The notes under the pieces were generated by a model. It had not been told where the DNA came from, did not search any database, and was given only the letters and a program-made list of their open reading frames with translations. A stretch of DNA of 32,000 nt from an uncultured archaeon (lineage in GTDB: Archaea > Asgardarchaeota > Lokiarchaeia > Sigyniarchaeales > Promethearchaeaceae): assembly GCA_964426185.1 (NCBI GenBank), contig CAYRPF010000010.1, positions 26,186-58,185 of the forward strand. The letters run 5' to 3'. Below, one piece after another: positions 30,319-32,000 of the stretch (position 1 is its first letter; every line of letters begins with the position of its first letter). The translations under genes and the position numbers were made by a program.

Positions 30319-31340
30319 TTTTCTCCTCCCAAAGGTAACTGATTAAAAATTGAATCAATCTTTATTGAAGGAACCAAACTATCCGATTTTTCTGCATTAT
30401 GAAGAATTTTTTCCAATTTCTTACAATATTTAGGTATTATCAGCCTAAGAAGACCTAATTTCTGTCTTCCTTTTATTATTTTTGCTGAAAATATTGCATT
30501 TTCAACTTTGTTTATAAATTGGAATTCATCAATACATTCAAGCAAGATTGAACTAACATGCATTCTTTTTAACTGCCAGGCACATTCGTCTGAAGTAAAA
30601 AATAAAGAATTGCTCAATGTTGCTTCTTTTTCTAAGTCTTCTTGAGATTGATGTAATCCATTAATAAAACTTGAAAGGATAAACCCCCCCTCAAAAGAAA
30701 CGATTGTATTGATTAAATCAAAAGTATTACTCGCAAATTCTTCGAGGAGTTTATCAATCATTTGATATGTTGTTTGTGAAAAACTTATAGAATATATTGG
30801 TATTCTTTCCTTTTTTTTCGAGACTTCAAATTTTTCTTGAGCAGAATTTAAAAATTCTTGCATTTCGGAAGATGAATAGTGTCTTTTTGGTGGTTTGAAT
30901 GAATTCTTAGACAAGACTAGACATTTCTTTATTTCAGTGAGACTATTTCTAATTTTTAAGAAAATCCCGCCTAAATTAACATCTGCACGCGTTGTTAAAG
31001 CAACATAAAATTCATCATCACAACCAGGCAAATTCTGAGTTTGAATGACTTTATTAACTGTAGAACTTCCGTAATTTTTAAGAGGAGTTATTAAAATCTT
31101 AGCAATTTTTCCCTCAATTAAAATATATTTTAATTTTTCATTATACAAGCTCAAACCACAATTATATATTGCAGAAGTTGCAGCACATATTCTAAAAAGT
31201 TCTTCTTTTGAAAGTAAAATACCGCTATGTTGTATAGGATTACCATCACGTTGTGTTAGCACAACATTTTCGACTCCCTTTGTCGCCTTAATAATATCTA
31301 AATACGTTTTGATTTTAGTTGACAGGGAAATTTTCTTCAC
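30309..31340 (-). CDS. Tandem roadblock/LC7 (MglB-like) domain protein
   Basis: Domain 1: GVENVVLTQRDGNPI...ICAATSAI...YILIEGKIAKILI...NLGGIF. Domain 2: NTIVSFEGGFIL...SILLECIDEFQFI...KLGLLRL. GTG start. Confidence 0.88.
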   Translation of the reverse strand: MKKISLSTKIKTYLDIIKATKGVENVVLTQRDGNPIQHSGILLSKEELFRICAATSAIYNCGLSLYNEKLKYILIEGKIAKILITPLKNYGSSTVNKVIQTQNLPGCDDEFYVALTTRADVNLGGIFLKIRNSLTEIKKCLVLSKNSFKPPKRHYSSSEMQEFLNSAQEKFEVSKKKERIPIYSISFSQTTYQMIDKLLEEFASNTFDLINTIVSFEGGFILSSFINGLHQSQEDLEKEATLSNSLFFTSDECAWQLKRMHVSSILLECIDEFQFINKVENAIFSAKIIKGRQKLGLLRLIIPKYCKKLEKILHNAEKSDSLVPSIKIDSIFNQLPLGGEKWI

Positions 31341-31367
31341 CTATTTTTACTTTTTATTTCTGTCAGA

Positions 31368-31377
31368 TTATATAAAA
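31368..31377 (-). promoter_or_regulatory. Probable TATA box of the roadblock-DENN-GTPase operon
   Basis: TTTTATATAA on the minus strand about 28 nt upstream of GTG 31340, compatible with a leaderless or short-leader mRNA. Confidence 0.55.
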
Positions 31378-31399
31378 TCCTAACATTTTTTTCCTTCTT

Positions 31400-31595
31400 C
31401 TCCCATAGTTGATTAGCACCAATTCATTCATCCCGTTTTGCCCAAACTCCAACCTTATGCTTCATTAAGACATAGTCAATCAATTACTATACCTTAGTCA
31501 TGGTGCCGATTGGCACCACAATCACGCTAAAATGTTAGGCTCATCCTCAGCAAATTACTGAAACTCACGTAACTCACTGTCCCAAGGACTTAAAC
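31400..31595 (-). ncRNA. Putative structured ncRNA with C/D-like boxes (U3-like candidate)
   Basis: GC-elevated non-coding island. Hairpins at 31501-31518 (TGGTGCC/GGCACCA) and 31466-31496 (11 bp, with G-U pairs that form only on the minus strand). GAGGATGA and TAGCGTGA motifs. Ends approximate. Confidence 0.6.
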
Positions 31596-31839
31596 AAGAT
31601 GTTAAAATCTAAAGAAATCTCAAATTTTCTAAAGAATTTTCATATTTTGATGATACAAAACTTTTTAAGATTCTTTTTTCATAAAATTAAAATTCTGAGA
31701 TTTTTCTTATCTTTTCTTTAACTTTTTTTTTCAAAGCCATTGAATGTTAAAATTTATTAAGGAAGAATCTCCAATAAAGTTTTTAATGAGACATTCGATA
31801 TGTTTAAATTAGGATTTACATTGTATATTTTGTAGTTGG

Positions 31840-32000
31840 AAACAACTCATTCCCATGTCAATCGGCGTGAATATGGATCAACGACATAGGTCTTGGAGAT
31901 GAAGTATTCCTTTCCTTGAACATGGGTGAACTATGAGGTCCTCCGAGGAGGACTGAAGTTGTTATGCACAGATGGTCGGTAAGTAAACGACCCCCAAAAA
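31840..32000 (+). ncRNA. Structured non-coding RNA, probably a pre-rRNA leader (5' ETS); may continue past the window edge
   Basis: GC-elevated, no ORF. CCCATGT/ACATGGG helix (31852-31858/31920-31926); K-turn-like hairpin 31929-31960; GGTCG/CGACC hairpin 31974-31992; TTTAAAT box at 31803-31809 upstream. The rRNA itself is not in the window. Confidence 0.55.

Follow-up and report, generated by a model that had tools for sequence, protein, structure and literature searches.

A covarying RNA module with a probable K-turn in the 16S rRNA leaders of several Asgard archaeal families

Introduction

Reviews describe U3 as unknown in archaea (PMC3608112, PMC8339473). The locus analyzed here raises the question of whether an Asgard archaeon carries something of its kind directly ahead of its small subunit rRNA. 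It lies at the end of a stretch of 32,000 nucleotides, referred to as the window (G000:C10:26186-58185), whose last base is also the last base of the contig. A preliminary description of this DNA pointed to a structured RNA at 31840-32000 and offered two identities for it: a 16S pre-rRNA leader with a cis-acting element resembling U3 box A and an L7Ae site, or a stand-alone guide RNA. It further suggested that U3 functions are split between this element and an RNA on the opposite strand. The letters on which it relied are in place, with GGATCAAC at 31875-31882, TCGGC at 31862-31866 and a GA-flanked hairpin at 31929-31960. The larger structure to which they belong was examined in the DNA beyond the contig end and in the corresponding leaders of related genomes.

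Results

Position Upstream of a 16S rRNA Gene

A search of the genome assembly of the organism (G000) found no 16S gene. A 35-nt word specific to the hairpin of this species retrieved a public metagenome contig of 2985 nt (L081) as its sole match, and this contig is identical to the window over 31712-32000, the final 289 bases. Past the window end, L081 continues through 56 more leader bases into a complete 16S gene (L081 349-1844) and then tRNA-Ala(UGC) (1947-2021); the assembly broke 56 nt ahead of the 16S gene. Logan contigs from three runs also extend past the window end, by 123-341 nt. Since L081 is identical to the end of the window and runs into 16S and tRNA-Ala, positions 31832-32000 represent 5′ leader (5′ ETS) of the 16S rRNA of a Harpocratesius-like Lokiarchaeon, probably its initial ~170 nt. 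The complete gene found to the right of the window, its start 56 nt away in an identical contig, bears out the leader identity proposed in the preliminary description. The proximal leader starts at 31993-32000 and, as read from L081, runs on for 56 nt past the contig end to the 16S 5′-end. The 16S gene is not linked to 23S, which is a known arrangement in Asgard archaea (PMC8997704).

A putative archaeal promoter was located on the same strand at 31794-31809, where a BRE-like block accompanies the TATA box TTTAAAT (31803-31809). The promoter block is present in six leaders of family f1, namely those of the window, G001a, G002, G010, G011 and G013, with TTTATAT as the TATA box in the last two. 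G001 is the closed genome of Candidatus Harpocratesius repetitus (Promethearchaeaceae, Lokiarchaeia), of the same genus as the window organism, and its two leader copies are designated G001a and G001b. Spacing alone would place the transcription start near 31832; the sequencing runs listed for this stretch include no RNA run. About 30 nt upstream of the TATA box there is a 27-nt plus-strand element (31746-31772) that is identical in the window, G001a and G002 (A1, A6), with a related AGGAAGA core in G010, G011 and G013; this element is possibly a promoter-upstream or regulatory site of the rRNA promoter.

Distribution of the Leader Module

Relatives of 31780-32000 detectable by BLAST were found in G001 (two copies), G002, G010, G011 and G013, each 50-75 nt upstream of a 16S gene, and every copy of the module whose surroundings were checked lies at this distance from 16S and on the same strand. 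A covariance model built from seven family-level leaders (R1) identified one site per 16S copy in the order and also matched the leaders of three further families (28 loci across the phylum, L043-L072 minus L052 and L053). A broader covariance model (R2) matched 32 of the 151 phylum genomes sampled, distributed over seven families (f1, 1/1; f3, 21/26; f5, 4/4; f15, 2/3; f17, 1/4; f21, 1/6; f23, 1/3). All but one of these genomes have a single match, and many of the matches lie at contig ends. The R1/R2 matches amount to one per 16S copy, with two in G001 and three in G010; the genome of the window organism has exactly one match. Family f9 contributed two leaders with weak R2 matches. An Rfam scan of 31300-32000, at gathering thresholds and at E ≤ 10, returned nothing relevant. 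The leader module is a conserved RNA element across several Asgard families, and since Rfam is without an entry for it, it constitutes a candidate new RNA family.

Some copies are found in a different setting. The second 16S copy of G001 (G001b; L023 = G001:C1:2303400-2306900, 1-435 and 722-2215) has the order 23S, ~286 nt, 16S. This copy, which follows the 23S gene, keeps the leader module from the K-turn designated Kt-A (see below) onward and is missing the promoter block. A metagenome contig from run X3 has the same kind of 23S-16S junction. In family f9, two GAUGAUG words with the look of a canonical box C occur in each of the leaders L067, L069 and L068, ~150-250 nt upstream of 16S; one of the two is closely trailed by CUGA in a manner that resembles a mini C/D K-turn hairpin. 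The f9 words suggest, from their letters, K-turn sites in the 16S leaders of further Asgard lineages.

Covarying Helices

The order of the module is the word GGCGU, helix P1, Kt-A with a C-helix hairpin, hairpin P2, a GA-bracketed hairpin (Kt-B) and hairpin P4. An unguided RNAalifold prediction on seven leaders recovered P1, a 2-bp stem, the small hairpin, P2 and P3, the last being the hairpin already noticed in the preliminary description. This first prediction is independent of the covariance model. The pair counts come from alignments fitted to the model, so the pairing that they show is somewhat inflated: in 39 leaders, 88.7% of the cells are paired compared with 73.8 ± 0.9% in shuffles, and 17 of the 23 pairs have changes on both sides. 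When the column of the 3′ partner was slid by one to three, pairing in the 39 leaders fell to 31-50%. Smaller alignments agree with these counts. The leader helices are backed by compensatory changes.

Folding of single sequences was uninformative. Minimum-energy structures, computed for the leader by itself and together with the 16S start, had z values of -0.8 and -1.5, no better than those of shuffles, and neither P1 nor a duplex with 16S was recovered in them. Nearest-neighbor energies penalize K-turn loops.

The 5′-terminal hairpin P0 (31834-31847), with 5 bp and a GAAA loop, was read from the sequence and appears in the single-sequence fold. It is kept in G002 with a compensatory change, and in G010, G011 and G013 its position is occupied by other hairpins. 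No word of the leader is better conserved in primary sequence than GGCGU (31864-31868), which lies immediately 5′ of P1; each of the 39 aligned leaders, drawn from seven families, has it as GGCGU or GGUGU. A consistent partner for this word was not found in the trailer, in the proximal leader or in the stretch after P4, where only lineage-specific matches of 4-6 bp were seen. In hairpin P2 (31912-31927), 31912-15 pairs with 31924-27; both sides vary in each of the four pairs, and pairing holds in 83.5% of the cells. Hairpin P4 (31974-31992), formed by 31974-78 and 31988-92, was seen in the folds, and hairpins of unrelated sequence occupy the same place in G010, G011 and G013; what is conserved in P0 and P4 is the structure.

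Kt-A, a Conserved Probable K-Turn

The center of the module is a loop of 3 nt opposite 6 nt that was absent from the preliminary description. The helix on one side of it, P1, is formed by G31867 and 31869-31874 (5′ strand, 31867-31874) pairing with 31904-31910. Its covariation, which is shared by the two strands, is extensive, with changes on both sides in five of the six pairs and 98% of the cells paired in alignment A7 (four of six and 93% in A10). The loop itself consists of GGA (31875-31877), which is also the first three letters of GGAUCAAC, facing GAU-GA-A (31898-31903). On the other side is a helix at 31878-31897 that begins with U31878-A31897 and C31879-G31896 and continues as an imperfect stem with a GAC/GUC hairpin, where 31883-85 pairs with 31890-92 around the loop 31886-89. 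This helix includes UCAAC of the 8-mer.

Read as a K-turn, the loop has every expected component. GGA supplies the 3n, 2n and 1n positions of the non-bulged strand, and the bulged strand is made up of the 3-nt bulge GAU (L1-L3), G31901 and A31902, which are predicted to form sheared pairs, and A31903 at 3b. The tandem pairs place G31901 opposite A31877 and A31902 opposite G31876, and the 3b-3n pair is A-G. P1, which follows the G-A pairs, corresponds to the NC helix and the helix on the bulge side to a canonical C helix. The letters at these positions are strongly constrained. The bulged strand reads N-A-U-G-A-(A/U) in 39/39 leaders, with AUGA invariant; the non-bulged strand reads NGA in 33 of them and NAA in the other six, with the A at 1n invariant. 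The -1 pair is U-A in 31 leaders and C-G in six, and the middle pair of the small hairpin in the C helix switches among A-U, G-C and G-U. The six leaders with A instead of G at 2n have a non-standard K-turn.

An A-G pair at 3b-3n is also found in Kt-7. A comparison with the standard K-turns bound by L7Ae, such as Kt-7, box C/D, C′/D′ and the 5′ UTR of the L7Ae mRNA (PMC3884654, PMC5539422, PMC6298567), reveals the 3-nt bulge, the tandem G-A/A-G pairs, the A-G at 3b-3n and the Watson-Crick C helix as common features; the NC helix of Kt-A, in addition, covaries. G at 3n favors K-turn folding (PMC4382518). The topology of Kt-A, in which the non-bulged strand is 5′ and the C helix is a hairpin, is that of the C′/D′ motif. 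Unlike the standard L7Ae-bound K-turns, Kt-A is located outside a guide RNA or an mRNA leader and has no guide segments, its 2n position is A in some families, and the binding of L7Ae to it is a prediction. The genome of the window organism has genes of the L7Ae family. Judged by its letters and their conservation, Kt-A is probably a textbook K-turn and a probable L7Ae site.

The GA-Bracketed Hairpin Kt-B

The K-turn proposed in the preliminary description, at 31929-31960, was only partly sustained. The letters and the GA dinucleotides hold, and the hairpin is conserved; the pairing of the flanks is not kept in relatives, and the AACU/AGUU pairing leaves a bulge of 2 nt where a K-turn has 3. 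The element, Kt-B (31932-31956), consists of the proposed bulge (31932-34), GA (31935-36), a 7-bp stem (31937-43 with 31948-54) around the loop 31944-47 and GA (31955-56), so that G-A/A-G pairs in tandem would flank a helix. Five of the seven stem pairs have changes on both sides, and 95.8% of the cells are paired. Families f1, f5 and f23 retain the GA/GA bracket, and f3 has U at 2b. Pairing of the flanks is absent in G001a, G001b, G011 and f5, and RNAalifold on 12 extended leaders did not find a conserved C helix for Kt-B. Kt-B thus appears to be K-turn-like and less secure than Kt-A. Pairing of 31842-47 with 31957-62 was also considered as the C helix of Kt-B and was rejected: its 5′ partner is the 3′ strand of P0, and RNAalifold on the same 12 leaders gave it no support.

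Complementarity to the 16S 5′-End

The U3 box A comparison was based on the 8-mer GGAUCAAC, which is indeed the exact complement of GUUGAUCC in the organism's own 16S (L081). Of 5000 dinucleotide shuffles of 31840-32000, 6.1% contained a perfect complement of at least 8 bases to 16S positions 1-30, as did 14 of the 398 real 161-nt tiles cut from the window, so the match is only weakly beyond chance. The second pairing that had been proposed, of UCGGC with GCCGG, does not form as described, the 16S of this lineage having GCCAG, which leaves three Watson-Crick pairs, one G-U and a C-A mismatch.

Alignment of the Asgard 5′ ETS sequences placed the 8-mer in its structural context. The full GGAUCAAC is present in four of the 39 orthologous leaders, all of them of the Harpocratesius level, the genus of the window. 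The same columns elsewhere read GGAUUAC (14 leaders), GGAUGAC, GGAUCAC, CGAUCAC, UGAUCAC, AAACCAAA, UAACAGC, AGAAAAAG and others. The first five letters of the 8-mer are the 3n, 2n, 1n, -1n and -2n positions of Kt-A, and the last three fall in the imperfect C helix. Since GUUGAUCC is invariant in 16S, a covariation test is impossible at that site. Helix 1 of 16S does vary (CCGG, CUGG/CCAG, CUAG), and the leader CGGCG or CGGUG does not follow its changes. The 8-mer is therefore the non-bulged strand of Kt-A plus a strand of the C stem, and its match to 16S is coincidental and specific to the genus, or has at most some secondary use; that it serves such a use within the genus is improbable. Across the leaders compared, pairing with 16S cannot be the core function of the module, since f5, f9, f15 and f23 keep the module and lack the complementarity, and g5, g6 and g13 are at the level of shuffles.

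The other attributes of a U3-like RNA were sought as well. In orthologous leaders outside the genus, complementarity to the SSU 5′-end is in a different register or absent; after GUUGAUCC, a second pairing that changes with 16S was not seen, the 16S having GCCAG here; and the element is located within the 16S leader, whereas U3 is an independent trans-acting gene with B/C and C′/D motifs. A likeness of CGGCGUGA to U3 box B was set aside, as Watson-Crick pairs hold its G and A in P1, with a compensatory change (GUCG in f5, f15 and f21).

The Opposite-Strand Region

The RNA on the opposite strand that was to share U3 functions with the leader fared no better. The region 31395-31555, used as a minus-strand query, has ten other matches in the genome of the organism (contigs C4, C9, C18, C22, C31, C53, C65, C82, C111 and C120) with 73-88% identity, for a total of 11 copies. 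It has no match in 20 relatives, including both genomes of the same genus, and it is absent from the syntenic position in G001 and G002. With many copies in its own genome, none in relatives and no synteny, much of the region looks like a dispersed repeat private to this genome, not a conserved housekeeping RNA, and a split U3 is not supported.

Proximal Leader and Trailer

Cofolds of short pieces predicted a duplex between the leader at -47 to -7 and the trailer at +57 to +94 of L081, beyond the window, as would be expected of a processing helix between the two flanks of a 16S rRNA. Equivalent duplexes were predicted in G001a/b and G002, with compensating differences when L081 or G002 is compared with G001a. 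A canonical bulge-helix-bulge (3-4-3) motif was not seen in the minimum-energy leader-trailer duplexes of L081 and its relatives; degenerate processing stems are known where rRNA genes are unlinked (PMC8997704).

The 16S start finds a complement in the proximal leader as well, at -16 to -21 kcal/mol in f1, and in f5 the last 30 nt of the leader reach -27.5 kcal/mol with the 16S start, a value attained by 0 of 200 shuffles. If any pairing in cis between leader and 16S exists, the proximal leader is a better candidate site for it than GGAUCAAC.

Two further observations concern these flanks. A conserved 10-mer near -30 of the proximal leader (in L081 302-342, leader -47 to -7, and in relatives) is able to base-pair with the U-rich trailer, and G002 and L081 show compensating changes; the same 10-mer can also pair with 16S at ~10-19. 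Just after the 16S 3′-end, every f1 trailer (L081 1852-1877 and L022, L024, L025 and L026) has a GC-rich hairpin and then a U-rich run. The hairpin sequences are entirely different between genera, which indicates that the hairpin is kept by structure; together with the U-rich run it could be a terminator-like or processing signal.

Discussion

Taken as a whole, the locus is probably best explained as a 16S leader with a folded module around Kt-A to which L7Ae would bind, the resulting RNP organizing the 5′ flank of the rRNA. The position upstream of 16S, the conservation and the covarying helices are observations; the transcription start, the binding of L7Ae and the function are what we infer from them. 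In the mechanism we propose, the leader would fold into the module as it emerges from the polymerase, and L7Ae would bind Kt-A and perhaps also Kt-B. The bound leader would then be kinked and locked as a compact RNP that protects or organizes the 5′ flank, while the processing helix would be formed at the same time by the proximal leader (-47 to -7) and the 3′ trailer (+57 to +94).

A structured leader could also be read in other terms. The asymmetric loops may not be K-turns, and GGCGU, P1 and the loop may instead be bound by some other factor (for example a ribosomal protein, a nuclease or an assembly factor), with L7Ae uninvolved. The most conserved word, GGCGU, is indeed outside the K-turn and not explained by it, the non-bulged strand is NAA in six leaders, and Kt-B lacks a conserved C helix and has U at 2b in f3. 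Nevertheless, 33 of the 39 leaders match the K-turn consensus in every letter, N-A-U-G-A facing N-G-A with a covarying helix on one side and a hairpin on the other, and C/D-like K-turn structures were predicted earlier in archaeal 16S spacers, as the account of Tang et al. 2002 given in PMC7038931 has it; we consider this reading unlikely. A stand-alone box C/D-like guide RNA that adjoins 16S by chance, the other identity put forward in the preliminary description, is so improbable that it can in practice be set aside. Words resembling box C (AUGA) and box D (CUGA, GGA) are present, but their order is D-like, C-like, C-like, D-like, where a box C/D sRNA has terminal C and D, internal D′ and C′ and free guides of 10-12 nt 5′ of D and D′. 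Here the positions where guides would lie, 5′ of the D-like words, are taken up by covarying helices of the leader, and bases paired in this way cannot act as guides. The closed genomes have one copy per 16S gene, every checked copy abuts a 16S gene at 50-75 nt, the G001b copy sits between 23S and 16S without a promoter block of its own, and no Rfam family matches.

The alternative in which the leader acts as a cis U3 box A-like chaperone deserves a more detailed consideration. It holds that GGAUCAAC and its flanks pair with GUUGAUCC in the helix 1 loop, so that formation of helix 1 and the central pseudoknot would wait for removal of the leader; such pairing might alternate with the Kt-A fold. 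Besides the exact 8-bp complement to the organism's own 16S, it can point to the four genus-level leaders, in which no other stretch of 16S is as good a target for the segment as its 5′-end (0/492 windows), to an extended duplex of -18 to -23.5 kcal/mol that is reached by 0.7-4% of shuffles, and to the many f3 leaders (GGAUUACGG) that can pair with the first 26 nt of 16S and rank in the top 0-24% of windows, mostly the top 10%. It also has a precedent. Dennis, Russell and Moniz de Sa reportedly proposed in 1997 (RNA 3:337, listed as ref. 114 of PMC3608112) that U3-like sequences of the prokaryotic 5′ ETS pair in cis with the SSU 5′-end and time the pseudoknot, which is the same idea as the chaperone of the preliminary description; here, the 16S-start complementarity that recurs more widely is in the last ~40 nt of the leader, not in GGAUCAAC. 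Against this alternative, the 8-mer is confined to one genus, and a chance 8-mer is found in 6% of shuffles. The register shifts with the lineage (16S 7-14 in g1, 14-26 in g5, g6 and f3), the score of g5, g6 and g13 is no better than that of shuffles (0.19-0.47), and four families keep the module with no complementarity at all. The K-turn already accounts for GGA-U and, when bound by protein, would not be available for pairing. The changes of 16S helix 1 go untracked by the leader, and the proximal leader beyond the window is at least as complementary to the 16S start. A chaperone of this kind is thus quite unlikely. A combination of the two, in which the 5′ strand of Kt-A in Harpocratesius and its relatives doubles as a cis anti-16S element and the leader toggles between a K-turn locked by L7Ae and a duplex with the helix 1 loop, the K-turn protein timing the 5′ pseudoknot, is more doubtful still. 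If true, the toggle would represent a cis-acting forerunner of the U3 snoRNP in the archaeal group closest to eukaryotes.

The comparison with the 5′ domain of U3 snoRNA (boxes A′/A) can be summarized in the same terms. As in U3, there is in this genus a complement to the helix 1 loop ahead of the SSU rRNA with K-turns nearby. Unlike U3, the leader would act in cis, its complementarity is not conserved, and a second conserved pairing and covariation with 16S are absent.

The leader that carries Kt-A has closer counterparts among the flanks of other archaeal rRNAs. In Archaeoglobus fulgidus, the 16S spacers that result when leader and trailer are processed and ligated were predicted to contain a C/D box-like structure (Tang et al. 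2002, NAR 30:921, as summarized in PMC7038931). As far as that summary goes, both cases have K-turn or C/D-like motifs in the transcribed flanks of 16S, which are thought to recruit proteins of the L7Ae type in maturation. Unlike the Archaeoglobus element as summarized there, each Asgard leader K-turn has both strands inside the 5′ leader, and so the ligation of leader and trailer is not needed; the order in Kt-A is D-like before C-like, and covariation across Asgard families serves to define the module. The likeness drawn here is one of description. Conserved secondary-structure elements in archaeal rRNA flanks (Kjems & Garrett 1990, as reported in PMC7038931) are, in that report, likewise helices of the leader and trailer, not of the mature rRNA, that are conserved across lineages; that study is older than the Asgard genomes and the K-turn concept, and the two are compared by description only. 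C/D-like motifs in archaeal rRNA spacers are therefore already known, and the Asgard leader module is a new variant.

The module bears on how pre-16S is folded and processed in archaea without U3, and does so in the Asgard group, to which eukaryotes are most closely related. The present analysis removes a false lead, as neither the "anti-16S" word nor its "U3-like" neighbor is evidence for an archaeal U3. It leaves in their place a sharply defined module, backed by covariation and with a putative K-turn of the L7Ae type, that occurs once per 16S gene in several Asgard families.
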